Part shown: positions 1,879-32,020 of the stretch, in pieces | Layout of the letters: every line of letters starts with the position of its first letter | Numbering within the stretch: the stretch's first letter is position 1 | Virus record (IMG/VR): IMGVR_UViG_3300042465_004150 | Location: 1-52,326 of that record | DNA from: a virus | Lineage: Duplodnaviria > Caudoviricetes | DNA: 52,326 bases | Reading direction: 5' to 3' (one strand) | Notes under the pieces: model-generated | What the model saw: only the letters and a program-made list of their open reading frames with translations | What the model was told of the DNA's origin: nothing | Databases searched by the model: none | Program-made: the position numbers and the translations under genes

Positions 1879-1955
1879 AAGCAGCCACCGCCCTTGTCTA
1901 CCTCGCGGCCTTGGCCGTGCTGGTTCTTGACCTTTTAATCTGGAGACCCTTATGA
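1875..1955 (+). CDS. 26-aa single-TM micropeptide
   Basis: MKAATALVYLAALAVLVLDLLIWRPL; ATGA overlaps at both ends fill the gap exactly. Confidence 0.65.
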   Translation: MKAATALVYLAALAVLVLDLLIWRPL

Positions 1956-2482
1956 ATGCCGCACGCTATTCAAATGCCGTGGCCTTGGCCGCCGCCGCTC
2001 ACTCCGGCGTATTCAGGAAAGGCACCACGGTGCCTTACATCTCGCACCCGCTTGCTGTCTCAGCAATCGCCATGGAATACGGGGCCGACGAAGACGTCGC
2101 CATTGCAGCCGTGCTCCACGATGTGGTTGAAGACGCTGGCCGGGAATTCATTGTCCCGATCAGAGAAGTATTTGGCACCCGCGTCGCTGACGTGGTGATG
2201 GCCGTCAGCAACATCAGCGCGGGCACCTGGAAAGAAAAGAAGATCGCTTACCTCGACCACTTGGCCAAGTCCAGCGACGACGTTCTTTTGGTTGCCGGTT
2301 CTGACAAGTTGCACAACGCCAGGGCTATCGTCTCCGACGGGCCTGCGGTGTTTGCAATATTCAAAGCGCCCAAGTCCGAAGTGATCTGGTACTACTCTGA
2401 GCTGGCCAAAATCTTTGAGTCCAGAGATGCACCGATGGCGTCCGCCTTTTCCGAAACCGTCAACAAAATGAAGGAGCTTTAA
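1952..2482 (+). CDS. HD-domain (p)ppGpp hydrolase, Mesh1/small alarmone hydrolase-like
   Basis: AAHSGVFRKG..PYISHP, AAVLHDVVED and SDKLHNAR motifs typical of SpoT/Mesh1 hydrolases. Confidence 0.88.
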   Translation: MNAARYSNAVALAAAAHSGVFRKGTTVPYISHPLAVSAIAMEYGADEDVAIAAVLHDVVEDAGREFIVPIREVFGTRVADVVMAVSNISAGTWKEKKIAYLDHLAKSSDDVLLVAGSDKLHNARAIVSDGPAVFAIFKAPKSEVIWYYSELAKIFESRDAPMASAFSETVNKMKEL

Positions 2483-16564: not shown

Positions 16565-16776
16565 TTGACGACCCTGAAGAAGAAGCCTGGAAAGAGATCG
16601 AGGCCAAGCAGTCTCAGACCAATCTCTTTGTCATACGCCGGGAGCCTACCATTGCCGTGATTAGCATCGGACCCGACGGCCGTTTATTTTGGCACGGCCG
16701 TGAAGTCGAAACCGATGACGATTTTCGCGGGGCCATGATGGACCTCGCGGCCGCGTTTCGCAACACCAGGATTTAG
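16561..16776 (+). CDS. hypothetical protein
   Basis: GGAGAGG RBS, MIDDPEEEAW...; last + strand gene, converges on the late region. Confidence 0.65.
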   Translation: MIDDPEEEAWKEIEAKQSQTNLFVIRREPTIAVISIGPDGRLFWHGREVETDDDFRGAMMDLAAAFRNTRI

Positions 16777-19700
16777 TCCTTCTCTTCGCCGGTGACGGTG
16801 AGGCCCTGGCGCAGATTGCTGCGCTTTTCGCGCAGCTTTTCTTTCTCGCGTTCGGACGCCTCGCTGGTGATTGCGCCCTTGGACTCCAGGCGTGTGAGCT
16901 TTCTGATCTCAAGCTCAAGCTCGCGGATCATGGCCTTGGTCTGAGACGCTTGAATCTTCTCTGACGTGTCCAGGTCGATCGGGCGAGCCTTGATACCCAC
17001 GGTCTGCATAGCTGCATACTTGGGCTGGATGGGCAAGCCATCTGCACCGATGCCGGTGTACTCGGCCAGGCCCACGTTGACAGGCTGGCCGGTGCTGTTG
17101 GCAACCACGTTCATGGCACGCTCGAAGTGGGTGTTGCCCACGGCGATCGCAGGGCTGGCCTGCTTCCACATCCAAGCCGCACGTTTCTTTGCAGCCTCTT
17201 CGGCGGTGTCGCTCTTGAGGACGATGTCCTTGTTGCGGAACGTGTCCTTGTTGAACAGCATTGCTGCGGCCGTTGTGAGCACCGGGTTGTTGGGCGTGAG
17301 CGGAGCCAACAGCGGGATGCCGCCAGCGTTGTTGTGTGCGTCGAACAGATCGCCGCCTGGGAAGACGCGGCTCACGTCCAAGAACACCGGCAGGTTGGTC
17401 AGGTCGTCTGTCCCCAAGCGGATCGCCTTCTCGGTGCCCAATGACAGGCTTGCGCCCTTCATCCATTCGGGCAAGGATTTGCGCTCTTGCTTTTCCATGT
17501 CTTTGACACGGGCACGGAATTCGTCATCGGTCACGTACCGGCGAACGATGGTCCACCAGTCCTCATCATCGCCACCGCCCAGGCTGGCAGCGATCGAGTA
17601 CATGATCGCGTTGACCGTGTACAAGGCAACCGCTGGAGCAGCGTATCGGAACGGGTGCTCCAGTGCTGTGTTGGCCAAGGCCGGAATGGCTTTGAACGTG
17701 TAGCTAAAGAACGGCAAACCCACCGGCATGTCGCGGATGATGCGCGCGGTCTTTGGCAGATCGTCGTATGTGAAGATGTACTTCTGTGCATAGTCGACCG
17801 AGTCGTCCACACCCAGGCCACGGCCGCGAGCGTCGCGGTAGATCAGGTATCGGAAGAATTGATCTTCTGCATCGTATGCCACGCCCATGGGCTTGCGCAA
17901 GAACAAGGACAAAGCATTCCACACCCGGTCCACGTTTTTGCCAATCGGTGACTCGGTCATCTGGGCCATGGCTCGCAGCTCTTCAGGCATCGCCTTGATC
18001 AGCTCGGAACGGTTGAACGTACCACCAAACAAGCCAGCATCTTTGGCTTCGTCGACCATCGCGTCACCCTTGACCAGGTCTTTGATGGAGCCGATGTACT
18101 TGTGCGCGTCCCAGTAAGACACGCCAGCAAAGTGGGCCATCGTCAAGTTCGACAGCACGTTGTTCGCGTGGGCCACTGGGTTGAGAACGGTCTTGCCCTC
18201 TTTCCACATCGACAGACCTTTGAGGTACATCTTGGTCAAGTCGTTTTGCATGGACGAGTCAAACGCGCTGAGTTGGTCAAGCACTTCTTTGGGCACCCAC
18301 TTACCGGCGATCTTGCCGTAGCGGGGGACCATGGTGTCTTCGATCTTGGTGTCAGGCACCTTGACATAGCCAGGCTGCTCTGTGCGGCTGGCGTAATTGG
18401 TGGCCAGGCTTTCGTACAAGCGGCCCAGTGCAATGTCGCGCTGGCTCTTGTTGTAGCCCATGACAAAGCGGAACATGGAGTCGCGAATCTCGCCCATGTC
18501 GTCGCGTTCGTCGCGGGTGTAGTCGCGCCACACTGTGATGGTGTCGTTGACTGCCGGGTCGAAGTCCGGGTCGCGCACTTCCCAGCCTTCGCTTTCCCAA
18601 TCAGCCAGGTCATCGACCGGCACGGTCTCAAACATGCCGCGAGCTTTTAGGCTGCTGCCGCCAATGCCTTGCATGGTCTTCTTGCGGCCGAGCAAATTCT
18701 TGACCGCTTTCATCCAGGCTTTGGTTTCGTCTCCGAGCTTTTGTTCGTAGAAGCGCGGCAGGTACTTGCCGTCCCAGCGGCCAGCGGCCTCGGGTGAAAG
18801 CATGCCCAGGCGCACCAGCTCTGCCGTCTGTTCGGACATGATCGACTGCATCGATGCTGCCAGGTCAAGCACATGCTTGGGCGGTTTGGACCCGCGCTTG
18901 AGTTCGCCCTCGATCACATCGCTGATCATCTGGCGCTCTTGTTCAGGCAGGTCTTTGAGATTCTTGGCCACGTCAACCGTGAGGTTCTGGGCCTTCTCGA
19001 TTTCCATCTTCATCTTGCGCAAGGCGCGCGACAGCTCAGGGCTGACAGGCTTCAAGTTGATGGCACCGAGCACGGTGTTGGCCACGTCTGCTGCGTATCG
19101 ATAGGCTTTCGCACCTGCGCCGAATCGGAAGCGGCCCAGCTCATCGCGGCTGAATATCCAGCCCTCGGTCTCTTTGCCAACCGGCTGACGCTGGGCCAAG
19201 CGGATGTCCGGGTTGTTCTCATCGAATGCGCCGGTGTTGTCAATGGCAGATTTGATCTGAGTGGGTTTGAAAACCACGTACTCGGAAGGATTTACAGAGT
19301 CGCCGTCAAAGATGACCCCGTCATGCTCTGGCGTAAGCACCTCTAAAGCGCGGCGCTTGGCATCGCCAAACGACAGGCCTTGCCTGCGGTATTTCTTAAT
19401 CGCGGCGGTGGTATTGAGTGGATTCTCGATTCTTAAATACGCTTGAGTAACGTCACCCCGTGGAGTTCGGATGCTTGCACCAAACGCCCTGGTGTAGCCC
19501 ATTGCTGCTTGCGCGTCGCCGGTAAAGTAAGTGCCAGCCAGATCGCCCTTGGCGCTACGGGTGGTAACGCGGGAAGTATCAAAAACCGTCACGCCTTTGG
19601 ACAAACTCCCGTGATACACCACCAACGGTTCGCCTTGGTCATCCACCACCTTGCTGTCGCCAAACCAGCGTTTGAATTCTGGTGTCTCGGTCTGACGTTT

Positions 19701-22064
19701 CTGGAACATCATCTCGGCTGGGTTCTCTTCGCGCCACTGTGTAGCGGCTTCGATAAACTTGTCGTAATCTTTGTCGACGAATTCGTCGATGGTTTTATAC
19801 CCGGCGTCCTCGGCCTTTTGCTGGAGGAACACCTCTTGGCGCGCAGCGTCGTCCGCAATCTGGACGATCTCTTCGCGCTTGCTAAAGGCTAAAGGGGCAC
19901 CAGTAATATCGACGTCCTCGCTGTATCTAGGGTTCTTGGCCAGGACCAGGGGGCCGATCTGGATCACCTCATCTGCTTCAACGACCGGCTGCATGCTGTC
20001 GCGGTTGTAGAAGTAACTGTGGCGGAATGGGTCCATGCCCACCTGCACCCAGTTTGGATCGTTCAGCGCCGCGTCAGCGCGGGCCTTGGCGTCTGCTTTG
20101 CTGACGGGTGACCACTTGCCAAGCATGGTGGCAATCGTGCCCTTGGACGTGCCCTGGGCGATCTTGGTTGCGGCCCTTTGGTTCATGCCAAAGGTCACGT
20201 CTGTCAATGCAGCCACGGACTCATAGCCCAATCTGGTGCCAGCGTCGTATGCCGCTTGCACTTCCCGGTTGGTGGACTTGGGTGTGTGCACAGTCACCAC
20301 CCAGGTGTCGTGCAATTGATAGGACGGAATGTCCAAGCGCAGTTGCGCCCAATCGCCACGCTTCAAGTTCATGGACGGAACACCGTACTGGGCCGCCTTC
20401 TCTGGGCTTTGCCCCTTGCCTGTTGCCAGGGCATAGCGTGCGTCTTTGGGCGTCGTGATGGCTGGCACCTTGGCGTAGGGGTAGACCGGGCGCAGCTCGT
20501 CGACCATGCGGTTGTATTCGGTGCGTGTGATCTTGCCGTCTTGCAAGTCGGTGACGGCTTGCTGAAGCTGTTCGGTGCGCTTGAACCGGTCGGCATCGGT
20601 GTTGGCCACGCGGCTGGCTTCGGCGTTCTTCTGCTCTCGTCGACTGAAGCTAGGTGCAATTACTTTACGGGCTACGATACCCAGGCCAACGTCTCGCTCA
20701 GTCTCATAACGCACAGGGTTTTCCAGGGGGTACAAATATTTGACGCCCCCTGGAGCGATGTCAAACTTGGAGTCTTTGGGCACCAGGCTTTGGTCGCGGT
20801 ATTGGTCAAACTGTTTTTGTGTGGTGACTTTGATAGGCTCGCCAATCGTCACCGCGCCAATTGCTTTGGCCGGACCGTCTCCGGTACGCACAATGGCGAC
20901 CCGTTTTCCAACATAGGGGCGGAGCGAATCCGACGCCCTGGTTTCAAGTGTCTTTTCTCCGTCAACAATTTTGTCAGCATATCGGTTTTCTCCGTCCTGA
21001 TTGACGTTGATACCAATGCTTTCGGGTATACTTGGAGATATGGCCTTCGACTTCAAATCCCTGCCACCCGGAACCCGGTTCTTTGACTGGTCAGATATTC
21101 CTGTGACCGTCTCTTCCGGCTGGCGTTCGGCCACGGCTTGGACACCAGGCCCCTCGCCGCGCAACCCCTCCGATGTGCGAGAAAACGCAAGCGAAATTTC
21201 TGAAGCTGCCTTCGAGACTTTGTTCAACGAGGTCTCAAGCCTGCGCAAGAAGAACCCATACCCCTCAGAATAAATCTTCATCTGAAGGTCGACCATCTTG
21301 GTCTTCAAAGCCCCTGGCGGCATCTCACGTTCAAACGCGTAAATCTCGTGGCCCAAGTTTTTGGCGGCCAGCATCTCTGGCGTGTTGATCTGAATCTCAG
21401 CGATAGTGCCGTCAGGCAAAACCACGTTTGTCAGTATGTCTTGGTACCCAGTCTCCAGGGGTTTGCCAGGTAGGACTTCCCCGTCCGGCGTATCGATGTC
21501 TTCGGCAAGCCGGTTCTTGATTCGATCGAATTTGTAGACCTGGCCGATCTTGTTGATCACTTGCTGGGCTTCTTCAATGCTGCTGACAGCTATGGTCCCG
21601 CGAAGCAGGTCACGCATTGTGTCGGCCAACCAGTCTTGCTCTTTGACCAATTTGGTGACGGCGCGGTATGGCTTTTTGATGCCAGGCTTTTTGGCGTACC
21701 CGTTGACTTCCTCAGCGATCCGGTCAAGCTCAGCATCAAAAGATGCTTTGTTGCGCCTTGCAGCCTCGAACATGGGCGCGAGCATTTCCCCGCCCATGGC
21801 GCGTTCCTCTGGCGTGAGCGGGTCGACCGGCTCGGGCTTCTTGTATTTGGCAATCGCGGCCTTGGCCTCGGCGATTGTTTCGGGATCGAGGATGTCTTCA
21901 GGCGTCAGGCTGGGCAAACGCTCACGCATGCTTAGCGCCACCTTGGGGCTGGGCAACAGGTGTTGCAAGCCGCCGTCAACTAGGTACGCTTTAAACGCGG
22001 CTTGGCCTTCGATAACGCGCTCATTGCCGTCCGCGTCGGTGAACCGATACGTGCAGTTGGCCAT
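16773..22064 (-). CDS. large polyvalent (probably ejected) protein: RelA/SpoT-like synthetase, ASCH, unknown domain, ART-PolyVal, C-terminal LPD38-like region
   Basis: KKPYRAVTK, DLLRGTI, GYQD, AEIQINT, GHEIY (~21260-21745); YADKIVDGEKTLETR ASCH (~20660-21020); FKRWFGDSKVVD..PLVVYHGS..YFT..HDGVI..EYVVF..QIKS (~19200-19695). Confidence 0.85.
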   Translation of the reverse strand: MANCTYRFTDADGNERVIEGQAAFKAYLVDGGLQHLLPSPKVALSMRERLPSLTPEDILDPETIAEAKAAIAKYKKPEPVDPLTPEERAMGGEMLAPMFEAARRNKASFDAELDRIAEEVNGYAKKPGIKKPYRAVTKLVKEQDWLADTMRDLLRGTIAVSSIEEAQQVINKIGQVYKFDRIKNRLAEDIDTPDGEVLPGKPLETGYQDILTNVVLPDGTIAEIQINTPEMLAAKNLGHEIYAFEREMPPGALKTKMVDLQMKIYSEGYGFFLRRLETSLNKVSKAASEISLAFSRTSEGLRGEGPGVQAVAERQPEETVTGISDQSKNRVPGGRDLKSKAISPSIPESIGINVNQDGENRYADKIVDGEKTLETRASDSLRPYVGKRVAIVRTGDGPAKAIGAVTIGEPIKVTTQKQFDQYRDQSLVPKDSKFDIAPGGVKYLYPLENPVRYETERDVGLGIVARKVIAPSFSRREQKNAEASRVANTDADRFKRTEQLQQAVTDLQDGKITRTEYNRMVDELRPVYPYAKVPAITTPKDARYALATGKGQSPEKAAQYGVPSMNLKRGDWAQLRLDIPSYQLHDTWVVTVHTPKSTNREVQAAYDAGTRLGYESVAALTDVTFGMNQRAATKIAQGTSKGTIATMLGKWSPVSKADAKARADAALNDPNWVQVGMDPFRHSYFYNRDSMQPVVEADEVIQIGPLVLAKNPRYSEDVDITGAPLAFSKREEIVQIADDAARQEVFLQQKAEDAGYKTIDEFVDKDYDKFIEAATQWREENPAEMMFQKRQTETPEFKRWFGDSKVVDDQGEPLVVYHGSLSKGVTVFDTSRVTTRSAKGDLAGTYFTGDAQAAMGYTRAFGASIRTPRGDVTQAYLRIENPLNTTAAIKKYRRQGLSFGDAKRRALEVLTPEHDGVIFDGDSVNPSEYVVFKPTQIKSAIDNTGAFDENNPDIRLAQRQPVGKETEGWIFSRDELGRFRFGAGAKAYRYAADVANTVLGAINLKPVSPELSRALRKMKMEIEKAQNLTVDVAKNLKDLPEQERQMISDVIEGELKRGSKPPKHVLDLAASMQSIMSEQTAELVRLGMLSPEAAGRWDGKYLPRFYEQKLGDETKAWMKAVKNLLGRKKTMQGIGGSSLKARGMFETVPVDDLADWESEGWEVRDPDFDPAVNDTITVWRDYTRDERDDMGEIRDSMFRFVMGYNKSQRDIALGRLYESLATNYASRTEQPGYVKVPDTKIEDTMVPRYGKIAGKWVPKEVLDQLSAFDSSMQNDLTKMYLKGLSMWKEGKTVLNPVAHANNVLSNLTMAHFAGVSYWDAHKYIGSIKDLVKGDAMVDEAKDAGLFGGTFNRSELIKAMPEELRAMAQMTESPIGKNVDRVWNALSLFLRKPMGVAYDAEDQFFRYLIYRDARGRGLGVDDSVDYAQKYIFTYDDLPKTARIIRDMPVGLPFFSYTFKAIPALANTALEHPFRYAAPAVALYTVNAIMYSIAASLGGGDDEDWWTIVRRYVTDDEFRARVKDMEKQERKSLPEWMKGASLSLGTEKAIRLGTDDLTNLPVFLDVSRVFPGGDLFDAHNNAGGIPLLAPLTPNNPVLTTAAAMLFNKDTFRNKDIVLKSDTAEEAAKKRAAWMWKQASPAIAVGNTHFERAMNVVANSTGQPVNVGLAEYTGIGADGLPIQPKYAAMQTVGIKARPIDLDTSEKIQASQTKAMIRELELEIRKLTRLESKGAITSEASEREKEKLREKRSNLRQGLTVTGEEKD
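21040..21273 (+). CDS. nested antisense 77-aa ORF, candidate antitoxin for the RelA-like domain
   Basis: GGAG and TATACT just before ATG; MAFDFKSLPPGTRFFDWSDIPV...ASEISEAAFETLF is globular-looking while the host frame here reads like a shadow. Confidence 0.6.
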   Translation: MAFDFKSLPPGTRFFDWSDIPVTVSSGWRSATAWTPGPSPRNPSDVRENASEISEAAFETLFNEVSSLRKKNPYPSE

Positions 22065-22068
22065 GTGA

Positions 22069-22560
22069 TTAACCGCCTAATTCTTGATCGATCAAAAGCA
22101 TGCCCGCTTTGTCGCCATCCATCAGCTGGATGCGAGACAACAAGTCGCCGTACTCGCCGACACTGGTGCGTTGGAATTCCAAAAACTGCAATAGGAATTG
22201 CTGAACAACGGGGTCCTCGCTGGTCTGGCCGTACCACTTCTTGTAGTCGTTGTACAACTCCAGCTCGGTCTCGTACCCGGTCTCGATCGCATCGCTCAAG
22301 CTCTTGATCGGGTCGTTCATGGCCTCGATCATCGGGACCTTGGCCACGGTGCCCACGTCGTTTTGGAATTCAACGTGCAGCTGGTAATGCACCAGCTCGT
22401 CGGCGCTTTCTTTCAAAAAGAATTTGGTTGCGCCGAAATAACCAAGGCGTTGCAGCTCGTTGGCGACGTGCTTGTAGAGATTTGACGCATAGAGTTCTGA
22501 ATGAACGGCGTCGTCCAGCATGTCTTTGCACTCTTGGGAGATGATCATTTTGGGCAACAT
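22069..22560 (-). CDS. ferritin-like protein
   Basis: ELYASNLY, GATKFF..ESADELVH, YETE, QFLLQFLEFQ match the four-helix ferritin pattern. Confidence 0.85.
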   Translation of the reverse strand: MLPKMIISQECKDMLDDAVHSELYASNLYKHVANELQRLGYFGATKFFLKESADELVHYQLHVEFQNDVGTVAKVPMIEAMNDPIKSLSDAIETGYETELELYNDYKKWYGQTSEDPVVQQFLLQFLEFQRTSVGEYGDLLSRIQLMDGDKAGMLLIDQELGG

Positions 22561-22569
22561 GGCGAATCC

Positions 22570-25500
22570 TTATTTGCAGTTAATCTTAACCAGGCCAGAG
22601 TCATCCAGCTCTGACAGAATGTCGAGCCAATTATCCTGGATGTATTTGATTTGAGGGCCGTCTGGCCGTGCGGTGTATGCAACCTCGGCCTTGGTCTTTG
22701 CCAGGCCCCGTTTGTCCAGGGCCTGGAATATGTCTTCGAGAGACTGGCCTACTACTTCGTCGGCTCGGACTCGGTAAGTTCGTTGCTCGATAAAAGTTTG
22801 CCGGTCTGCTCCGCCAAGCGGGCCGCTTGGGCTGCTCGGCTGGCCAGCCTGCTTATTTGCTCCCGCGACCGACTTGCCAGCCACTTGTCGTGCTGGTCCT
22901 GGTCCAGATTTGGCTGCTGCGCTGATTCGTTTTCCATCAAAACCTTCTTTCGTGAGGAGCGATTTTGCCGCACCTGCGTAGTCTTGGCTAGTGACTCGCA
23001 GCTTTACGCCCAACTTTTTGTAAAGCTCTTGTTCTGGATACCAGATTAAAGCCTGCAAAGCTGCGGGCGGTACGCGTTTGCCGGTCTCTGCTTCGACCTT
23101 GTCCACCATCTGGCGGACCACATCTCTCAGAAGTTGGCGCTCGCCACCGCTTTTGGGGGCGTCTTTTGGCTTCTCGGCAGACTTGATGATTGCACCAGCC
23201 GCGCCAACCAGGGCGGTCTTCTTGCGAGCGCCGGAGTCAAACGCGGCACGTTCCTTGATGAATTGGCGGTTGTGCAGGCTGTTAACCTGTCGCGCCAAAG
23301 CAACGGCACCCGCGTCGGTCTTCATCGCTTCGTCGACTATGGCCTTGTCAAACTGGTCAGCGTACAAGCCCACGGATGCTGGCCCAGTCTCGGCCAGGGC
23401 AGCGCGCAGCTTGGCCACTTGCTTGGGGAACAGGACCGGGTCAAACGCTGGCAGCGTACCGGCCAGGCGGCCGACGGTGCGCATGAACCACATGTCCATG
23501 GTGACCGGTTCAAAGTTGCCGGTGAGGTTCGAGTAAAAGCCAAAGCCGATCTTGGGTCCAAAGATCGCAGACCCCAGCATCTTCTCGTCCATCGATTCGC
23601 CGCCGATCGGAAAGCCCATGGTCTCCAGGTCGCGCTTGGTGAATTCGGTTTGCAAGAATCTGCGCAACAGGTCAGGACCCATCTCGGCCAACACGTCGTT
23701 GGCCAAAGCAAAGTTGTTCCCCATCGCTGGCGCGGATTTGCCGGTGCCCACCTCTGGGAATTTGCTTACGCCCTGCGCATTTACCGAGGCCCTGTAAGCC
23801 TCGTACTGCTTGGACGCATAGCGCAAGTTGTCCTCGACGTTCATCGTCTGGGACGATATGGCCACGGCCATCAAAAACGCATTGCGTGCGGCTGGGTCGG
23901 TGTTCAGCTCTGGGTATTTGACCGCCATGATCCGCAGCGTTTTTGCCACGGTCTCGTCGTACCACTCGACCGCATTGCCTGCGCTGCGGATTGCAGCAAC
24001 AGCTTCGGCCGACAACAGTTTGGCCAGGACCTCGCGGTCTTCCGGCTTCTTGATGTCGAGGATGGGCAAACCAGATTCAGCGCGCCTTGCGTCCAGCCAC
24101 TGGACAACCTCTGGCACGCCCCCGATTCGAGGGGCCTGGAATGTCTGGTCCTTGGTCAGGCCGGTCATCATCGGCAAGGCCGATGCGTTGTACTCAGCAT
24201 CTGACATCTTGAGGCTCTTGGCCACGTCTTGGTAAACACCAAAGTCTTTGGGCACTGGCGGACCAACGAACGGGGCTTGTTGCTTCTTGGCAAAGCGCAC
24301 GTCGCTGCCGATCCGCTCCAGCTCGGTGTTGGCTGCCTCGGCCTGATCGGCCGGGATTTCCAAGTTGCCCATGCGAACCTGAGCGCCAGGGATTTTGGTC
24401 ACGTCGATTGCGTTTGCTTCGCGTGACAGCAAGCCCTTGGTCAGCTTGGTAGGCGCGGCAGCTTCAGGTGCGGCCGCCGAGGGAACCTGGCCAAGCGCGC
24501 GCACAGGCACGGCCTTGTGCTTCATGCCCAGCAGCACGACGGCTGACTGGTTGTTTCCAAACGGCGCAATGTAGCCGTCGAAGCCCGCGTTGATTACCGC
24601 TGACTCGAACGCGTTGGCGTCCGCTTGCGGCTTGATCAGTCGCGTTTCGGGGTCGTAGATGTTTTGGAGGTTGACTTCGTGGGCGATTCCACCGACTCCG
24701 CTTTCGGGGCGGATGCCTGCCCCCTTGTCAACATAGAAGTAAATCCGGTTTTTGAGCCTCGGATCAGGGCTGCTGTCCAAGCGATTGCGTTCTGCACCTT
24801 TGAGACCACGGCCATAATATGCTCCACTTAAAACTTGACGGGGGGCCGTTGAGTAATGTCGGCCGATAACGGAGACTGCGCCTTGGCGGGCTGTTCCGTA
24901 GCTAGGGGCCGGACCGCCCCCACCTTCCTCAGATAGTTGTCCAATTGCGCCTGCAACGCTTGGTTGGATTTCACTTCTTGCAATGCCATCGATTCGTTGT
25001 CCATTTACTGCTCCCAGTGCGCCCTTGTTGTACGCCACCAAGGCGTCACGGGCGACCATCTTAGCGCGATTCAAATCGCGAATGTACTTGTCGACCTTGG
25101 CCGATTCTTTTCGCCCCTGGTCCTTTGACCCGCGCAAAGTTTGCAGCAGGTTGTCGATGATGCCAACCCACTTACTGACAAAGCCCTTGAACCCTTGCGG
25201 ATCAGCCTTGGCCACGTCGGCCCAGAATGCCTTGTCAGTTGCTCGGTTGCCCAAGAAGTCGGCGGTCATCTCCGACTTCAAGTTGTCGCTGGTCAAAAGC
25301 TGCTGCACCCGCTGCTCGCGCGCAGCTGGGTCGGCAATTTTGATCAGCTCATCGCGGTGCAAGAAGTTCTCGACATAGGCGCGCTTGCCCTCGTCGGTCA
25401 TGTCATCGAAAACGCTGTCGATGCTGGCCGTGAATTTCTGGGCCGGTGTGTCGGTCAGGCCAGCTGAAGTCTCGGCTGCTGCGATCTGTTCGACCGTGTG

Positions 25501-28086
25501 CTTGAATTCATGCAGCCCAGTGCGCAAGACGTTGACATCTCCAGCCGTATTGACAAACGCGGTCCCGCCAATTGCGACCCCGTTGATGGACATGGGACTG
25601 GGGTCGGTAAACGCGACAAGACGTCCACCAAACTGGCTGTTCAAAGCACTGGCGATCTCGTTGACCGCAGCCTCCTGCGCGGGCGCGGGAGCGTTGAGCT
25701 GGGGCGCTTCTACACCATTGGAAGAAGCCCATCTGTCGAGAGTTGTTTGTGCAGCTGCTCTCGCTCTGTTGGCGTCAGGGAGTCCTGCCACTGTCGGAGC
25801 TGCGGCGTCAGACACTGCCTGTGTTTCAGGGATGGAGACGAACCCGCCTGCAACAGGCGCGGCACCTGGGGCGGCCGCTTGGGCAGCGGGCTTGGGGGTA
25901 AAAGTAACTGAGCCATCTTGGTTCTCCACCTGATCAAACTGCTGGGACAAAGTGCGCCGGTCACCCAAACGCAACTTGCCAAGCTCCTCGGGAGTGTAAG
26001 TCCTGCTTTCGATAGGAGCCCCTACAACGGGCTGAGCGGCTTGGTCAGGGGTAGCTAAGGGCGCGCCCGCGATCGGGGCTTGCTGGGCCGTTTGCTCAGC
26101 CTGGCGGGCCGTTATCTCGATGGCAGCACTGCGCCTGGTGATGGCTGGCACGGTTTCGTCACCGGCAATGGTTGTCAGCTGGTCGTCAGTAAGGTTGGCA
26201 GCAGGTTCGCCCTGGATGCGCTGGGGGCGCGGGGCGTTCAGGCGGAGTTTGTCCAGGCCGAATTGCTGCTCCACCTGGGCGTTGACCGGCGGCAGATCGA
26301 TACCTGGGATCGGCTCAACGCGGCCAGGGATTGGGGCCAACAGATCGCCTGTCAGGGTTGGCTCGACGCGGCCAGGCACCGGCGGCAGCTCGCCTGTCAA
26401 GGTTGGCTCGATGCGCGGCAGCGGCGTCATGGCGGTGCCTGGGACCAGAAGCTCATCTACTGAGCCTGCCAGGTTTTCGGCAGCGGCCACTGCGTCAGCC
26501 GCAGTGCTGGCTTGGCCAAGGTCTTGCTGAGCCTGGGCGATCTTGGCTGTCTGGGTGGGGCTGATGATGTTGTCGTCGTAGGACTGGACATCGAGAGCGC
26601 GCCGGGCAAGGGTGTCGCCAACAATGTCAAACGGTGCGGCTGGGCGGTTTAAAGCGTCCCGCACTTGCTGGCCAACAGCAACGGCTGAGAACGGGGCCGA
26701 GGTAACGGCGGCCGTGGCCATCGCTTCAGGCACGCCCTCTAAGAGCTTTTGTTTTTTGTTAACCGTTTGCGCGATGATGTTAGCGCCCAGCTGGGTGCCG
26801 CCCTCTTCAAACTGTTCACCGATAAGTTCTTTGCCAAACAGCTTTGCCGCACCCCTGGGAGTGGCCACGCTGGTCAAGGCTTTGCCTGCGCCCCTGGCGA
26901 CTATGGCTGCTTCGGCACCCATGAAACCAAGAACGCCCAGAGGGGCAGTGATGATTGCGGCCAAGCGCGCTTTGGCTGTGGCAATCTCGTCGATCGCTTC
27001 CGCAGGCGTCTTGCCTTCTGCAATCAGTTTTTGGTAGTCTGGGTTTTCTTGCCAAACGCTAGGCGGCGTTTGCTTAGGGTCGATCAGCTTCTCGTAGACG
27101 TTGCCAGCAGCATCGCCAGCGGTCATCACCGTGGCGGCTGTCAAACCACCAGCGGTTGCGCCAGCGGCCCGAGCACCCGCCTGAAGCGCGCCGCCACTGA
27201 TGGCTTCGCTGAGCGCAACGGCTGGGCTGACTCTGGTGGCCACGCCAACGCCGCCACCGGCAATGGCAGTGCCGACCTTAGCCAAGCCCATAATGCCCAA
27301 GAAGTTGGGCACCTGTTTGGCTGCTTCAGAAAGGCCAAGCGCGGGGTTGGTCACCAGGCTTTCAATTGTTGAAAGGTACTTGCCAAAGAAGCCCTCTTCG
27401 CTTTGAACGCGTTCGCGCATCTGATCGCGCTGGGCTTTCATCACATCTGATTCTTGCGCTTGCAATTCTTTTTGCGTCTCGCGCAAAGTCTGGGCCAGCG
27501 AGCTGCCAGGAGCGACGATGTTGGTCGGAAGTTGGACCAGGCTTACTGCGCCTTGGGCCAAGGGTCCTGCCAATTGGTCAATTGTCCATTCGCCAAATGT
27601 GCGGAATTCATCGGCCTTGGCGTCTCGCGCAGCCCGCACGTTGACCGGGTTGTTTGCGCGCTCAATCAGATCAGCAAAAGAAGGGGCCTTTTTTTCGGCC
27701 ATTCCGGCTGCCGTCTTTCGGACCGTCTTGTCTTCAGTGGTCAGGATGCCGCTGCGCAAAAGGTCAGCTTTTGCTGCGGTCCCTTGGCTGATTGGTCCTG
27801 CGCCATACGACAACCGACGATCGATTTCGGATTGCTTTTCTTGCGGTGTAAACGCCACGGTTTCCAGCACGCTCTTAGATTCCGGTTTGAGGAAATCGCC
27901 AACGCGCTGGATGAGGCCCCGATTATCGATAGCCGGTGGATTTACAAAACCTCGACCGCCCCCTGCCTCAGAAGGGCGAACGCCCTCCGGCAATTCACGC
28001 TTCCCCGTGTCTAACTCGCCCGTGAAAAGGGTATAGCCGGGGCTTTCTTCGTCGTCCAGCTGGCCGTTAAAAAGTTGATAGGCCAT
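22570..28086 (-). CDS. large polyvalent (probably ejected) protein: N-terminal helical region, HExxH metallopeptidase, ART-like domain, HhH-glycosylase-like domain
   Basis: GLHEFKH...EMTAD (~25030-25680); RHYS..RIYFY..E..GFDGY (~24500-24880); WYD..AISSQ..GPKIG.GFYSNL..VTMDMW..LQALIW (~22970-24130). Confidence 0.8.
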   Translation of the reverse strand: MAYQLFNGQLDDEESPGYTLFTGELDTGKRELPEGVRPSEAGGGRGFVNPPAIDNRGLIQRVGDFLKPESKSVLETVAFTPQEKQSEIDRRLSYGAGPISQGTAAKADLLRSGILTTEDKTVRKTAAGMAEKKAPSFADLIERANNPVNVRAARDAKADEFRTFGEWTIDQLAGPLAQGAVSLVQLPTNIVAPGSSLAQTLRETQKELQAQESDVMKAQRDQMRERVQSEEGFFGKYLSTIESLVTNPALGLSEAAKQVPNFLGIMGLAKVGTAIAGGGVGVATRVSPAVALSEAISGGALQAGARAAGATAGGLTAATVMTAGDAAGNVYEKLIDPKQTPPSVWQENPDYQKLIAEGKTPAEAIDEIATAKARLAAIITAPLGVLGFMGAEAAIVARGAGKALTSVATPRGAAKLFGKELIGEQFEEGGTQLGANIIAQTVNKKQKLLEGVPEAMATAAVTSAPFSAVAVGQQVRDALNRPAAPFDIVGDTLARRALDVQSYDDNIISPTQTAKIAQAQQDLGQASTAADAVAAAENLAGSVDELLVPGTAMTPLPRIEPTLTGELPPVPGRVEPTLTGDLLAPIPGRVEPIPGIDLPPVNAQVEQQFGLDKLRLNAPRPQRIQGEPAANLTDDQLTTIAGDETVPAITRRSAAIEITARQAEQTAQQAPIAGAPLATPDQAAQPVVGAPIESRTYTPEELGKLRLGDRRTLSQQFDQVENQDGSVTFTPKPAAQAAAPGAAPVAGGFVSIPETQAVSDAAAPTVAGLPDANRARAAAQTTLDRWASSNGVEAPQLNAPAPAQEAAVNEIASALNSQFGGRLVAFTDPSPMSINGVAIGGTAFVNTAGDVNVLRTGLHEFKHTVEQIAAAETSAGLTDTPAQKFTASIDSVFDDMTDEGKRAYVENFLHRDELIKIADPAAREQRVQQLLTSDNLKSEMTADFLGNRATDKAFWADVAKADPQGFKGFVSKWVGIIDNLLQTLRGSKDQGRKESAKVDKYIRDLNRAKMVARDALVAYNKGALGAVNGQRIDGIARSEIQPSVAGAIGQLSEEGGGGPAPSYGTARQGAVSVIGRHYSTAPRQVLSGAYYGRGLKGAERNRLDSSPDPRLKNRIYFYVDKGAGIRPESGVGGIAHEVNLQNIYDPETRLIKPQADANAFESAVINAGFDGYIAPFGNNQSAVVLLGMKHKAVPVRALGQVPSAAAPEAAAPTKLTKGLLSREANAIDVTKIPGAQVRMGNLEIPADQAEAANTELERIGSDVRFAKKQQAPFVGPPVPKDFGVYQDVAKSLKMSDAEYNASALPMMTGLTKDQTFQAPRIGGVPEVVQWLDARRAESGLPILDIKKPEDREVLAKLLSAEAVAAIRSAGNAVEWYDETVAKTLRIMAVKYPELNTDPAARNAFLMAVAISSQTMNVEDNLRYASKQYEAYRASVNAQGVSKFPEVGTGKSAPAMGNNFALANDVLAEMGPDLLRRFLQTEFTKRDLETMGFPIGGESMDEKMLGSAIFGPKIGFGFYSNLTGNFEPVTMDMWFMRTVGRLAGTLPAFDPVLFPKQVAKLRAALAETGPASVGLYADQFDKAIVDEAMKTDAGAVALARQVNSLHNRQFIKERAAFDSGARKKTALVGAAGAIIKSAEKPKDAPKSGGERQLLRDVVRQMVDKVEAETGKRVPPAALQALIWYPEQELYKKLGVKLRVTSQDYAGAAKSLLTKEGFDGKRISAAAKSGPGPARQVAGKSVAGANKQAGQPSSPSGPLGGADRQTFIEQRTYRVRADEVVGQSLEDIFQALDKRGLAKTKAEVAYTARPDGPQIKYIQDNWLDILSELDDSGLVKINCK
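22752..22937 (-). CDS. nested +1-frame 61-aa ORF (MENESAQQPNLDQDQHDKWLASRSREQISRL...)
   Basis: AAAGAAGG-ttttg-ATG; starts right after the HhH-like domain; amphipathic helical sequence. Confidence 0.45.
   Translation of the reverse strand: MENESAQQPNLDQDQHDKWLASRSREQISRLASRAAQAARLAEQTGKLLSSNELTESEPTK
24828..25004 (-). CDS. nested +1-frame 58-aa ORF (MDNESMALQEVKSNQALQAQLDNYLRKVGAV...)
   Basis: GGGAG-cagtaa-ATG; spans the linker into the ART-like domain; below the ORF-track cutoff. Confidence 0.5.
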   Translation of the reverse strand: MDNESMALQEVKSNQALQAQLDNYLRKVGAVRPLATEQPAKAQSPLSADITQRPPVKF

Positions 28087-29249
28087 TATCTTTGGATGTA
28101 TCTTGTGCCGTCAGGCAATGCATACACATTCTTTCCGTTGCTCTTTCCAATAAGAGTTGCGCCAGCGGGTAAGGTTTTAACTGTGGGCGCTGCCTCGGCT
28201 TTGGGCGCACCAGGCTCAGGCTTGGGCTTGGGCGTACCCTTCTCGTCTATCTGCCCTTTGAGCAAAGACATCGCCTTGTCGCGCAAAACAACGGCGTCGT
28301 CATACTGACGCTGCCATTCGGCCTTGGCCTCGGGCGTGCTGCCCTTGCTGCCCTCTTGCAACGACTTGATCGTGGTGTTGGCAGAGTTGACCATGGTCGT
28401 CAACCGATCAGCGCCTTTGCGGTTGAACATGCCGCTTTCAATCTCGGCCGCGATCTTGGTAATTTCTGCGTTGTACTTTTTGGCCAATGCGCCTTGAGCG
28501 CCAGCTTGCGCCACGTTCTCGGTGATCTGCGATTGACCGACAGGCGTGACCTTGCTTGTGCCGGTGTACTGGTTAAATTGCATGCCGTCTTTGACTTCGA
28601 CCAAAGGCTTGCCGCCTATGACCGCAACGGCTTGGCCGCCGACGGGCGCAGTTTCTGGGCTCGTGTACGCCTTTTCCCCAATGCTGGTTATGAGGCCAGT
28701 CTGACGACCCTTTTGGACATCATCAAAAGCTGGGCCTAATGCGTAGGACTCGATGATTGCACCGATCTGTTTGCGCTTTGCATCGGCGTACTCTTTGAAT
28801 TGCGGCGGCAACCTTGAGACCGTAGACTCTTCTCCAGAAGGGCCAATGTCAATCTCGTCTTTCATAAACGGGGTGAAATCGCCGGTCGTGTCTGCCTTGC
28901 GAAATCTTTGATATTCCGGCAAAGTCATGCCGGAATTCATGGCAATTATGCTTTCGGCTTTACCCCCTGGACTCAAATCTTCCAAAGCAATACCACCCTT
29001 GCCGCCGCCGCCGCTACTGCTGCCGCCGCCTGCGCCGACAGCCTTTTTGTAAAGCGCGTTTTGGCTTTCGCGAAATTCACGATTGGCCAAGTCGTTCGCT
29101 TCACGATAGGCCAACTCCTCGCGGCGAAGTGTCATCCGAGCTTCGCGATCTTCTCTGGCCGTCTCGGCCTTCATCAGAAAGCTGGCCATGGTTGATCCCG
29201 CATCGGCAAGCCCTTTGCCGAAACCGGCCCACATCAATGCGTCAGACAT
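28086..29249 (-). CDS. putative internal virion/ejection protein
   Basis: AGFGKGLA N-terminus, Gly-rich linker, C-terminal VYALPDG; position in the ejection cluster. Confidence 0.7.
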   Translation of the reverse strand: MSDALMWAGFGKGLADAGSTMASFLMKAETAREDREARMTLRREELAYREANDLANREFRESQNALYKKAVGAGGGSSSGGGGKGGIALEDLSPGGKAESIIAMNSGMTLPEYQRFRKADTTGDFTPFMKDEIDIGPSGEESTVSRLPPQFKEYADAKRKQIGAIIESYALGPAFDDVQKGRQTGLITSIGEKAYTSPETAPVGGQAVAVIGGKPLVEVKDGMQFNQYTGTSKVTPVGQSQITENVAQAGAQGALAKKYNAEITKIAAEIESGMFNRKGADRLTTMVNSANTTIKSLQEGSKGSTPEAKAEWQRQYDDAVVLRDKAMSLLKGQIDEKGTPKPKPEPGAPKAEAAPTVKTLPAGATLIGKSNGKNVYALPDGTRYIQR

Positions 29250-29260
29250 GTTCTCGCTCC

Positions 29261-29719
29261 TTATTGGGTAAAGACGGCAGGATCAATTTGGTCCATGCCT
29301 TGCTGCAACTGGGTCGTGTCAACACCGTTCTCGCCAAGGTAGCGCAGCAGCATGTCTTTGAATGCTCCAGCAGCTTCTTCCGGTCTGATGTCCATCTTTG
29401 CAGCCTGGCCAATGTCCATCACTTCTTTCAAGATGGCCATGGCCAGCAAAGCAACAAGCTCACGGGGAACCTTGCCACCGGTGCGTTCGTCCACCACGCT
29501 GGTGATCTCGTAAGCAATAGTGGCCAGGCCCTCTTGCTTGTCGGGAGATGTGCGCAGCTGCTCGGCAATGTCTTTTGCAGCGCCTTCCTTGTACATCACC
29601 TGCAAAGCAAACTTCATCGCTTGAAGAAACTGAGGATTGTTTTCGTCTGCTTGAGATTCGTCACCGCCCTGGTCGGCCATTTGGCCAGTGGGGATTTGCT
29701 TTGAAATTATTCCGTCCAT
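29261..29719 (-). CDS. hypothetical virion-associated protein
   Basis: AAGGA RBS; acidic helical 152 aa. Confidence 0.75.
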   Translation of the reverse strand: MDGIISKQIPTGQMADQGGDESQADENNPQFLQAMKFALQVMYKEGAAKDIAEQLRTSPDKQEGLATIAYEITSVVDERTGGKVPRELVALLAMAILKEVMDIGQAAKMDIRPEEAAGAFKDMLLRYLGENGVDTTQLQQGMDQIDPAVFTQ

Positions 29720-29734
29720 GATGTGTCCTTTTGA

Positions 29735-29992
29735 TTATTTGGTGAGCTGCATCGTTTTTGAAATCAAACCTTTTTGGCCCGACTGCTGATAGGTGTTAGT
29801 TGTTACTGCCCTAGGTTGCGGGCGATCCCCGGTTTGCTGCTCGGCAGTCAACCCGCCCGTGGTTGGCTTTCCCGGACTTTGGCCTGTTTGCACGCCAGCC
29901 ACGTTCATCGAGTTGGTGCCAGAAGACAAATCCATTGCTGGCGTTGGAGCCATTGATCTAACCGCTGATGGGTCGATGCCGGGGCGTTGCAT
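29735..29992 (-). CDS. small low-complexity protein
   Basis: tightly packed ORF; C-terminal KGLISKTM. Confidence 0.6.
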   Translation of the reverse strand: MQRPGIDPSAVRSMAPTPAMDLSSGTNSMNVAGVQTGQSPGKPTTGGLTAEQQTGDRPQPRAVTTNTYQQSGQKGLISKTMQLTK

Positions 29993-29995
29993 GTT

Positions 29996-30292
29996 TCAGT
30001 ACCCGCGAATGTTGTTGCTGATCAAACCTTTCGGCTCCGGTGGTTTCCACCAAGCCGTGCCCGAGTCCATGTCTTGAAGCATGGGCGGGGGCGCGTAGCT
30101 GCGGTTAGTCTTTGCAGTGCCAGCGGCTTGAGGGGGCGGTTCGGTTGCGGTTGCGTTTGCATTTACAGCCGTGGGTTTGTCCCACAAACGCGCGTAGGGC
30201 GCGTCTTTCTTGGCTTGAGCCGCAGCAGCCGCAGCAGCCGCAGCAGCGGCTTCTTCCTCTGCGGCTACACGTATGATTTTTTTATAGGCCAT
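29996..30292 (-). CDS. small Ala-rich protein, paralog of 30296-30562
   Basis: shares PYxRLW, PPPMxQDMDxGxAWW and GLI motifs. Confidence 0.7.
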   Translation of the reverse strand: MAYKKIIRVAAEEEAAAAAAAAAAAQAKKDAPYARLWDKPTAVNANATATEPPPQAAGTAKTNRSYAPPPMLQDMDSGTAWWKPPEPKGLISNNIRGY

Positions 30293-30295
30293 GGC

Positions 30296-30562
30296 TTACC
30301 CCTGGATGGTGGTGGAAGGCATGCGCCCAACACCGCGCCCCGGTGTTGCTAGGGCCATGTTGCGATTGATTAAACCGTTTGATGCTTGAGGATTCCACCA
30401 GGCAGCACCGGCGTCCATGTCCTGAACCATGGGTGGGGGCGTGTTTTGGCCCCACAAACGCTCGTAGGGTTCAGCTTTTTTGGCTTCAGCCGCAGCGGCG
30501 TCGGCAGCCTGTTGCGACGCCAACATCTCTCTGGCGCGCTCTATGAAAGGCTTGAAGTCCAT
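30296..30562 (-). CDS. small protein, paralog of 29996-30292
   Basis: PYERLW, PPPMVQDMDAGAAWW, NGLINRNM. Confidence 0.7.
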   Translation of the reverse strand: MDFKPFIERAREMLASQQAADAAAAEAKKAEPYERLWGQNTPPPMVQDMDAGAAWWNPQASNGLINRNMALATPGRGVGRMPSTTIQG

Positions 30563-30572
30563 GGCTTACCCC

Positions 30573-31577
30573 TTATGCGTAGCCGGGTGGCAGACGGCCG
30601 ACACCGTACCCTGGGGGCATCTGCGGCATCTGAGCGGTCGGCATGTTGCGGTTGATCAGGCCAGTGGGCTGAGGTTGAGCCTGTTGCGCCCAATACGGTG
30701 TGTAGCCTTGGGATCGTTGTGGGTTCCACAAGGACCCACCGACGTTGGTGTTGTATCGGTCGTAAGCCTCTTGGCGCAAACGCGCTTGGGTCTCAGCCTC
30801 ATACTGGCGCTGATCTTCCATAGCCTTTTGCTGGTTTGCGCCAGCGATCATGCCGCCGACCACTTGCGTGCCACCTGCGATAGCGCCGTACTGGACCAAG
30901 GGGTTGGCAAACATGCCGCCAGCAGCAGCGGGTGCGCCTGCCCCCGCTCCTCCGACATAGACAGACGGGATTTTGCTGCCAATGCCAGCGCCAAGCCCAG
31001 ACGTGCTTCCAACTCCTGCTCCTGCACCACCGCCCGTGCCCATGGTCAGACCCTGAGCAGCTCCAGTGCCCCCAGGTGCCGCAATGACCCCGCCGGGTGC
31101 CGCGCCTGCGCCTGCGCCTGCGCCTGCGCCTGCGCCTGCGCCCGCGCCCGCGCCTGCGCCCGTACCAGCTCCGCCACTCAGTACTGCGCTGCCTGTAGTC
31201 ATCGCTGCCGGAGCAACGGTCGCTCCGCCAGCAGCGCCAGCAGCGCCAAAGGTGTTGCCAATAGTGCTGGCAGCTTGGCCAAAGTTACCGGCCATGGTGG
31301 CGCTCCAGGCGGTGGATAGCCCTGACGCCGCGCTACTGACCCCGGCCCCCATGCCCGAGAGGAAACTCCCTCCCGCAGCAGATGAGCCAAAGCCCCCGGC
31401 CAGAGCCGCGCCTCCAAAGTAAACAGCCGCCGCAATGACGACGGCTTTGCCCAGGGGCGATTTGCCGATCTCGCTGGCCAAGTTGCTCACGCCCTTGGCG
31501 GCATTGCTGATGGCGTTGACAGCGCCCTTGACGACGCCGCCAATGGCGTCGCCGACTCCTTGAACTGCTTTTGACAT
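30573..31577 (-). CDS. Gly/Ala-rich ejection or pilot-like protein
   Basis: amphipathic N-terminus, hydrophobic VVIAAAVYFGGAAL, (GA)n tract, QQKAMEDQRQ coil. Confidence 0.75.
   Translation of the reverse strand: MSKAVQGVGDAIGGVVKGAVNAISNAAKGVSNLASEIGKSPLGKAVVIAAAVYFGGAALAGGFGSSAAGGSFLSGMGAGVSSAASGLSTAWSATMAGNFGQAASTIGNTFGAAGAAGGATVAPAAMTTGSAVLSGGAGTGAGAGAGAGAGAGAGAGAGAAPGGVIAAPGGTGAAQGLTMGTGGGAGAGVGSTSGLGAGIGSKIPSVYVGGAGAGAPAAAGGMFANPLVQYGAIAGGTQVVGGMIAGANQQKAMEDQRQYEAETQARLRQEAYDRYNTNVGGSLWNPQRSQGYTPYWAQQAQPQPTGLINRNMPTAQMPQMPPGYGVGRLPPGYA
31102..31161. repeat. hexanucleotide microsatellite (GCGCCY)x10 encoding (GA)10
   Basis: counted directly from the sequence. Confidence 0.9.
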
Positions 31578-31579
31578 GA

Positions 31580-32020
31580 TTAGATTCCTCGCACGTAACA
31601 GAGATTTACGGATTCCCTGGCAAAGCCAAGGCGTTTAAAAAGACGGATCAGGCGTGGGTCCACTTCTGGCTCCAGGGTAAGAGTCGCGACCTTGATGGCG
31701 GACCGGCCTTTGAGCCAATTTGCGAATTCACGGATCAAGCGAATGCCTGCACCCTTAACCAGCGAATAGTACAAAAGCACAGAGCACTGCATCTTGTCGT
31801 ACCAAAAGCTCTTTTGCACGCATGCGCCAAACACAGCCACGACTTTGCCATTCTCGTCTTCCGCCACCCAGGCAAAGTGCGCTGGGTTGATACACGCCTG
31901 GGCCATCCGTGCCATCGCTTCGCGGTCTATCTTGACCGGCAAAGGATTGTTTGACACCGAGATCACGGCTATTTCTACGATGGCCGGGATGTCTTGGAAT
32001 TTGGCTTTGCGATAGATCAT
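31580..32020 (-). CDS. GNAT-fold acetyltransferase-like protein of the virion module
   Basis: IYRKAKFQDIPAI, WVAEDENGKVV, GAGIRLIREF, LFKRLGF. Confidence 0.75.
   Translation of the reverse strand: MIYRKAKFQDIPAIVEIAVISVSNNPLPVKIDREAMARMAQACINPAHFAWVAEDENGKVVAVFGACVQKSFWYDKMQCSVLLYYSLVKGAGIRLIREFANWLKGRSAIKVATLTLEPEVDPRLIRLFKRLGFARESVNLCYVRGI

Follow-up and report, generated by a model that had tools for sequence, protein, structure and literature searches.

The window analysed here is the whole of the 52,326-bp viral record IMGVR_UViG_3300042465_004150 (completeness estimate about 94%), whose layout is podovirus-like, with terminase, portal, capsid, tail and lysis genes followed by several very large genes on the minus strand. 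One of these, hereafter the enclosing gene, encodes a polyvalent-type multi-domain phage protein that has no whole-protein family in Pfam or PHROG, and the viral structure models closest to this protein are named polyvalent, LPD, RelA/SpoT or ART-PolyVal. Toward its C-terminus, an all-α domain is followed by a linker, within which a short open reading frame (ORF) runs in the +1 frame. Judged from its conservation among relatives, this ORF (22937..22752, minus strand) is almost certainly a real protein-coding overlapping gene, and its product is predicted to bind the domain encoded immediately upstream.

The nested ORF opens with an ATG at 22937-22935 and closes with a TAG at 22754-22752, and the spacer TTTTG (22942-22938) separates the ATG from the Shine-Dalgarno (SD)-like stretch AAAGAAGG. 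Within the ORF 28086..22570 of the enclosing gene it starts at offset 5149, and 5149 mod 3 = 1 places it in the +1 frame. The coordinates, the frame and the upstream bases all agree with those given in the initial annotation, which had been made from the letters of the window and had picked out this 61-aa ORF. The main frame reads ...VTSQDYAGAAKSLLTKEGFDGK where the nested ORF begins, in keeping with its further proposal that the ORF starts where the glycosylase-like domain ends. The main-frame translation of the overlap is a low-complexity linker rich in G, A, P, S and Q. Length alone was rejected as evidence for a nested gene, because ORFs of 58-68 aa abound in the +1 frame of the enclosing gene, which has a G+C content of 57% and contains 19 ATG ORFs in that frame, the longest of 68, 61, 59 and 58 aa. 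A blastn search of the region against phage records gave no match.

Conservation and coding signature of the nested frame

Querying viral contigs with the last 519 residues of the enclosing protein returned 111 related stretches, the best 80 of which (39-99% identity) were kept; two of these loci stop short of the nested site, leaving 78 informative loci. The start at the homologous site is kept in 77 of the 78, as ATG in 71 (within one codon) and as GTG in six, and the remaining locus, L069, has neither codon, yet holds a homologous peptide in an open +1 frame. Among the 64 distinct nested copies, 60 start with ATG and four with GTG, and each start is preceded at a distance of 4-10 nt by an SD-like core. 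Complete copies encode 47-118 aa, with a median of 61; the copy in L053 is cut by the contig end. Moreover, at aligned residues 394-400, 99-100% of the distinct loci (n = 70) have a +1 frame that runs without a stop for 45 codons or more, whereas elsewhere among the 469 scanned query positions the open fraction is at most 48% for the +1 frame and at most 30% for the +2 frame. Conservation of the frame after homologous domains, which the initial annotation had proposed as a check, is thus found at this site, far in excess of what chance would give.

The longer nested variants (83-118 aa; L075, L076, L088, L089, L050, L054 and L045, as well as L161:2663-2878) share a C-terminal extension that ends in ...GLT..E.A.E.A..FGF, or in LGF or GWM.

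The substitution pattern changes phase at the overlap. In 33 close sequences, pairwise differences at main codon positions 1/2/3 are about 0.15/0.08/0.46 in the upstream domain (third position 0.44-0.47), compared to 0.334/0.228/0.188 in the overlap. Here the main-frame third positions, which are the nested second positions, vary least, and the main-frame first positions, which are the nested third positions, vary most. The same positional flip is present in two more divergent groups. When residues 300-1838 of the enclosing protein (34 sequences) were scanned for codon phase in sliding windows, only two regions were flagged, residues 1717-1777, which correspond to the nested ORF, and residues 1021-1069, which correspond to another ORF starting at 25004. 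Applied as a negative control to the first 840 or so codons of the neighbouring giant gene (17 sequences), the scan flagged no region. Consistently, the +1 reading of the overlap has an amino-acid identity of 0.70 and the main reading one of 0.56, whereas in the domain the values are 0.49 for the +1 frame and 0.84 for the main frame. On these patterns, the nested frame is the more constrained of the two readings of the overlap.

The ORF starting at 25004 has the same +1 phase, as the initial annotation had noticed (offsets 3082 and 5149), and lies in the enclosing gene about 690 codons further upstream. Its region (residues 1021-1069) is the only other place where the main-frame third positions vary least. 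In the relatives holding the module, a start with an AAGGAG-type SD sequence is conserved together with the peptide E[VI]K[TA]YQ..Q..D..L.K.GA[VI]RP. On the strength of this conservation, we count the 25004 ORF as another real overlapping gene.

The two nested peptides have no evident similarity past their first five residues in the window. A common M(D/E)NES start had been put forward as a link between them; we rejected it as a shared signature because it is not conserved among the relatives of the 25004 ORF, which start with MHRP.., MDQPT.. or VKQIS... The pattern occurs only in the window and in its 99% identical twin L003, and the resemblance is coincidental. The coordinates of all these features, together with those of the genes discussed below, are collected in Table 1.

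Table 1. Position of the nested frames, the surrounding coding regions and related genes in the window
Feature	Position	Strand	Remarks
Enclosing gene, polyvalent-type multi-domain phage protein	22570..28086	-	1838 aa
Nested +1-frame gene (very probable), MENESAQQPNLDQDQHDKWL...	22752..22937	-	61 codons plus TAG stop; overlaps enclosing residues 1717-1779
Shine-Dalgarno-like AAAGAAGG	22943..22950	-	5 nt 5′ of the nested ATG; equals main-frame K-E-G codons
All-α domain with predicted HhH-GPD DNA-glycosylase-like fold	22924..24129	-	402 aa, residues 1320-1721; predicted partner of the nested peptide
Small C-terminal part of the enclosing protein	22573..22751	-	Past the overlap; main-frame substitution pattern ordinary
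Second nested +1-frame gene (from conservation), MDNES...	24828..25004	-	58 aa; about 690 codons upstream in the same enclosing gene; offset 3082
HD_4 (SpoT/RelA hydrolase-like) gene	1952..2482	+	51% identical to the bacterial HD_4 directly before the free-standing homologue
Neighbouring polyprotein gene	16773-22064	-	1763 aa; ART-PolyVal, E 5e-23

Two further features were noted in and beside the enclosing gene. An HExxH-type motif, HEFKH, stands at residue 859 of the enclosing protein (window 25498-25512, minus strand); this module, which has no family match, may be a metallopeptidase able to process the polyprotein. In addition, a 163-aa ferritin-like or rubrerythrin-type gene (22069-22560, minus strand) lies between the two giant polyprotein genes.

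Homologues of the nested product in phages and bacteria

A profile built from 61 nested peptides and searched against 1.84 billion representative proteins gave 88 matches at E ≤ 1e-3, 30 of them at E ≤ 1e-10, most of which are 47-120 aa long. Some of the matches (for example P0010, P0016 and P0052) carry the peptide module fused to other, unrelated segments; one segment fused in the database homologues has the motif MP[VI]R..T.EE.E..FG.G.V.FG. A second database yielded 43 homologues, none with a Pfam domain; most are nameless, and the only name present is 'hypothetical protein'. No family was found for the small protein in Pfam, PHROG, PADLOC or NCBIfam, and the Protein Atlas gave no usable match. 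The product has a conserved polar and acidic N-terminal motif, QQPNLDQDxHDxWL, and its predicted structure consists of two helices (residues 11-22 and 25-44) and a disordered tail (residues 52-61).

In viral contigs, a strict DNA motif of the gene was present in 50 loci, every one of them in the nested context. Eight of these lie on contigs outside the 80-locus set of relatives, and in all eight the domain is encoded directly upstream (tblastn); the other 42 lie on the contigs of those relatives. A search of viral contigs for free-standing forms with P0028 and P0052 as queries found none.

Free-standing genes of 57-72 aa with the same module were found in metagenome loci (L133-L144) and in three Comamonadaceae metagenome-assembled genomes (MAGs; L147-L149), where they are not inside any long frame. 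One of them, P0094, is 79% identical to the window peptide over 42 aa. The free-standing gene directly follows a 193-aa HD_4 gene of the SpoT/RelA hydrolase-like type, and its start overlaps the end of HD_4 (L134, L135, L141 and L147-L149); in the Comamonadaceae the two genes appear to be translationally coupled. The pair occupies, for example, L135:900-1686 and L141:4382-5162. The neighbours of this bacterial islet are ordinary chromosomal genes, namely those for photolyases, a NiFe hydrogenase, a histidine kinase, a TetR regulator and an acyl-CoA dehydrogenase, and beyond HD_4 and the small gene the islet has no synteny with the phage. Nine distinct free-standing copies differ by 0.17/0.17/0.37 at codon positions 1/2/3, which is an ordinary coding signature. 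These homologues, the retained start, SD sequence and open frame and the codon pattern in the nested phase are together the grounds on which we consider the nested ORF a real overlapping gene. In a tree of the peptides (62 columns), a supported branch separates the nine bacterial copies and the most divergent phage group, itself on a long branch, from the other copies. The nested frame is probably the older reading, and the main-frame linker would be the younger one, produced by read-through of a once separate small gene.

A cultured relative extends the arrangement to low identity. Limnohabitans phage DC33 (PQ492659.1; locus L161) encodes the domain, at 30% identity, in a single coding sequence (22242..31619) annotated as 'hypothetical protein'. 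Right after the domain, a GAAGGAG motif in the +1 frame precedes an unannotated 71-aa ORF (27781..27566, complement), which matches the peptide profile (E 4e-5 in a small search) and ends in ...GLT..E..EMAEKFGF, as in the longer variants. MW202722 has a 62-aa +1-frame ORF with an AGGAGG motif at the same place, the similarity of which is not significant. In the passages searched, the DC33 paper (PMC12195039) mentions no polyvalent proteins, overlapping genes or glycosylases; it describes a phage with an icosahedral head and a short tail, assigned to Caudoviricetes. The taxonomy line of PQ492659.1 lists DC33 under Inoviridae, which is probably an error in the record.

The upstream domain and its predicted complex with the nested product

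The 402-aa domain was modelled with a predicted local distance difference test (pLDDT) of 90.7, and the model was compared exhaustively with 48,161 chains using VIA-align. The best match was the 8-oxoguanine glycosylase Tm1821 (3n0u_A), with a Z score of 11.6 and a root-mean-square deviation of 3.8 over 196 aligned residues. Ranks 1-23 are all of the HhH-GPD type, including NTHL1 (Z 9.3), the DUF2419 queuine-salvage enzyme (Z 9.2) and MagIII (Z 9.0), in addition to ROS1, MutY, EndoIII, AGOG, OGG1, AlkA and the 5-PmdU glycinyltransferase gp46 of phage PaMx11; the next row, which is unrelated, has a Z of 5.5. Helical models can reach a Z of about 13 through arrangement alone, and we therefore take the match as support at the level of the fold: the domain is predicted to have an HhH-GPD glycosylase-like fold. 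The domain contains an invariant stretch, F190-G191-P192-K193-I-G195-F-G197 ... G204..P208.T210.D212. This GPK-x-G-x-G ... P..T.D stretch appears to resemble the signature of HhH-GPD proteins, a helix-hairpin-helix with a Gly/Pro-rich loop plus a catalytic Asp.

The domain recurs in viral structure models named polyvalent, LPD, RelA/SpoT or ART-PolyVal. Sequence searches of the PDB with the domain were empty, and PHROGs, PADLOC and NCBIfam gave nothing usable for it. Two family matches were regarded as noise, namely DUF7178, matched by 7 of the 56 domain members with a best E of 0.0028, and the PADLOC entry PDC-M42C (E 0.0077).

Co-folding of the domain and peptide alignments gave scores of 0.83, 0.85 and 0.83, compared to 0.08 for the best of three controls. 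Such a score expresses the confidence of the model. Among reference cases, 116 of 157 solved complexes and 2 of 215 mismatched pairs attain this mark, a calibration that applies only roughly here because our own alignments served as input. The runs agree in at least 82% of contacts, with a partner pLDDT of at least 74. The predicted interface involves residues 4-50 of the peptide, which hold the conserved motif and both helices. Its domain side comprises 57 residues, 17 of which are invariant, compared to 8.2 expected (hypergeometric P 9e-4), including S93, Q94, N101, G191-P192-K193, T210-D212-F215, D323 and W363. In this predicted complex, the peptide sits on the conserved cleft of the domain, as a cognate binder would.

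Role of the nested product and relation to known systems

As the best explanation, we propose that the nested gene sits in an inter-domain linker of the giant gene for a polyvalent virion protein, in the +1 frame, and that ribosomes would initiate internally at its SD sequence and ATG on the shared late mRNA to make a product of about 60 aa. This product would bind the conserved cleft of the HhH-GPD-like domain encoded immediately upstream in the main frame. Its most likely role would be that of a neutraliser that silences a DNA-directed domain in the producing cell while the phage DNA is replicating. Once the polyprotein unfolds for ejection into the next host, the peptide would be shed and the domain freed. 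For this explanation as a whole we see roughly even chances. Taken singly, binding of the peptide to the upstream domain is somewhat probable, and an inhibitory role is a tentative assignment.

Several results weigh against this proposal. No sigma-70-like promoter was found near the nested ORF, and with no promoter-like site nearby the peptide would depend on internal initiation on the polyprotein mRNA. For the upstream domain, the initial annotation had spoken of a glycosylase-like domain; this holds for the fold (Z 11.6, with the top 23 rows from one superfamily), whereas a sequence-level HhH-GPD match was not found. Pfam PF00730 is absent for the window protein and is also absent among the 25 most frequently matched of the 39 families that any of the 56 domain members matched at E ≤ 1. 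An hhalign comparison of the domain with an alignment of six bacterial HhH-GPD proteins gave a probability of 0.45%, and Foldseek against the PDB found nothing below an E of 0.1. The rough calibration of the complex scores counts on the same side. Furthermore, the profile of the upstream domain has no match in the three Comamonadaceae MAGs, which are incomplete, or in the 14 metagenome loci, which span 1.3-10 kb with up to 5 kb on each side of the match. Bacterial homologues that are linked to HD_4 in the apparent absence of the domain suggest that the role of the peptide may be wider or its partner a different one. The cognate inhibitor proposed in the initial annotation is thus borne out in part, by a conserved gene, an HhH-GPD-like fold and predicted binding to the cleft, whereas a purely cognate role fits poorly with the free-standing bacterial homologues.

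Those homologues also speak for a less probable alternative, in which the overlapping gene is real and its protein works independently of the domain, on an HD_4-type enzyme or a host target, as an anti-defence or host-takeover factor, with its position in the linker merely a by-product of gene-cassette fusion. In the bacterial loci listed above, the homologue always lies directly 3′ of HD_4 with overlapping start and stop, the phage itself owns an HD_4 gene that is 51% identical, the HhH-like domain was not found in the three incomplete MAGs, and the module is fused to unrelated segments in, for example, P0010, P0016 and P0052. Against independent action stand the 50 viral loci with the strict motif, since the eight on new contigs all hold the domain directly upstream and the other 42 lie on known relatives; the nested gene stays with the domain down to 30% identity, and the complex prediction clears its controls by a large margin, on the invariant surface of the domain.

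It is rather improbable that the peptide binds the domain as a folding chaperone, a packaging adaptor or an activating subunit and not as an inhibitor. The same predicted complex would apply, ejected virion proteins often need helpers, and the extra conserved C-terminal motif ...GLT..E.A.E.A..FGF of the longer variants could dock elsewhere. Nevertheless, the predicted footprint covers the invariant residues of the cleft, the expected substrate site, and occlusion would therefore fit better than assistance.

Programmed +1 ribosomal frameshifting, which would produce a truncated polyprotein with the peptide as a fold-back tail, is very improbable. The +1 frame is indeed open for 22 codons 5′ of the ATG in the window, and a tethered tail could fill the same cleft. 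On the other hand, the start is kept in 77 of 78 loci, with GTG where ATG is lost, an SD-like core is present in 64 of 64 copies, and the free-standing homologues begin near the same motif. Because the bases around the site vary (GGTTTTGATG, GGCTTCGATG and GGATACGATG), there is no conserved slippery run.

Least credible of all is a chance open frame, a nucleotide-level element such as an RNA structure, or main-frame constraint alone, because, even though this 57% G+C gene has many +1-frame ORFs of about 60 codons and the SD-like bases double as conserved main-frame K-E-G codons, the substitutions are three-periodic in the nested phase, amino-acid identity across the overlap is higher in the +1 frame, only at the nested site is the frame open in 99-100% of distinct loci, the bacterial homologues vary in coding fashion with no overlap, and the negative-control gene lacks the signal.

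The proposed neutraliser could be part of a broader arrangement involving HD_4. In the phage, the HD_4 gene is followed by an unrelated 81-aa ORF (2482-2727). Residues about 105-240 of the neighbouring polyprotein have a weak RelA/SpoT match (Pfam E 1e-4, below the cut-off) and resemble Tas1 (PDB 6ox6, E 0.009). Because of the phage HD_4 gene and these weak RelA/SpoT and Tas1-like signals, the bacterial operon looks, speculatively, like a pair of candidate antidotes against two injected domains. A joint reading, which we regard as unlikely, would be that polyvalent proteins hide antidotes in alternative frames of their linkers and that Comamonadaceae captured two of them as an anti-phage operon able to disarm effectors injected by phages. 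Fusion of effector cassettes would have turned each such small gene into a linker by reading it in a different frame, so that the linker is its fossil, with two examples in this polyprotein gene; HD_4 would match the RelA/SpoT or Tas1-like domain and the small protein the HhH-GPD-like domain. If true, this would be a new kind of anti-phage immunity built on stolen neutralisers.

The nested gene can be compared with several known systems. In the Rz/Rz1 spanins, which function in lysis, Rz1 is embedded in the +1 frame of Rz and encodes a lipoprotein with a signal peptide and a lipobox Cys. Both cases involve a small phage gene that lies wholly inside another, in the +1 frame and with its own start, and in both the product and its partner bind, here by prediction. 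Unlike Rz1, the 61-aa nested peptide has no Cys and no signal-like segment, its gene lies in a polyprotein linker, and it is a predicted binder of an enzyme-like cleft. Moreover, the window has a separate Rz-like spanin gene (34480-34983, minus strand); this gene contains a 140-aa alternative-frame ORF (34506-34928), which may be an embedded gene of the Rz1 type.

In Bacillus subtilis, comS encodes a 46-aa regulator out of frame within srfAB, a giant multi-domain non-ribosomal peptide synthetase gene. The likeness lies in a small out-of-frame gene concealed within a very large multi-domain one and in internal initiation on the same mRNA, which is proposed here. ComS differs from the nested peptide in that it acts on MecA/ComK and not on the enclosing product, and in that it is bacterial.

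Phage inhibitors of DNA glycosylases include Ugi of PBS2 and p56 of phi29, which are encoded by free-standing genes and target the host family-1 uracil-DNA glycosylase. Like them, the nested product would be a small, partly acidic phage protein on the DNA-binding face of a glycosylase-type enzyme. The predicted target differs, being the phage's own HhH-GPD-like domain with a different fold, and the comparison is made at the level of their descriptions.

Effector-immunity or toxin-antitoxin systems are exemplified by toxSAS paired with small alarmone hydrolase antitoxins. As in toxin-antitoxin pairs, a potentially harmful enzyme domain would be linked here to a small cognate binder, and, as in the toxSAS pairs, the phage combines an HD_4 hydrolase gene with a weakly matching RelA/SpoT (Tas1-like) domain, located in the neighbouring polyprotein. 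Unlike in those pairs, the putative neutraliser is overprinted inside the gene for the effector polyprotein and is not adjacent to it.

Polyvalent proteins of phages and conjugative elements have been described as giant, multi-domain and virion-delivered, with ART-PolyVal, RelA/SpoT-type and LPD modules (Iyer et al. 2017, PMC5512222), and the domain studied here recurs in such proteins. In the text of that article, the words 'glycosylase', 'overlapping' and 'frameshift' are absent and no out-of-frame linker genes are described; searches of a limited literature collection likewise turned up no account of nested genes of this kind.

Genes nested in frame-shifted linkers are missed by gene callers, as exemplified by the unannotated ORF of DC33. 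If the peptide neutralises the adjacent domain, this would explain how DNA-directed weapons can be produced safely and late beside the phage's own DNA. If true, the arrangement would also provide a rule for finding hidden partners of uncharacterised domains in polyvalent proteins, and would imply that effector polyproteins grow when translation in a second frame takes in a small neighbouring gene that itself persists. From the free-standing copies in bacteria comes the testable idea that neutralisers of phage origin are put to use again by hosts in defence, and the cultured phage DC33 with its host, Limnohabitans sp. DCL3, gives experimental access to these questions.

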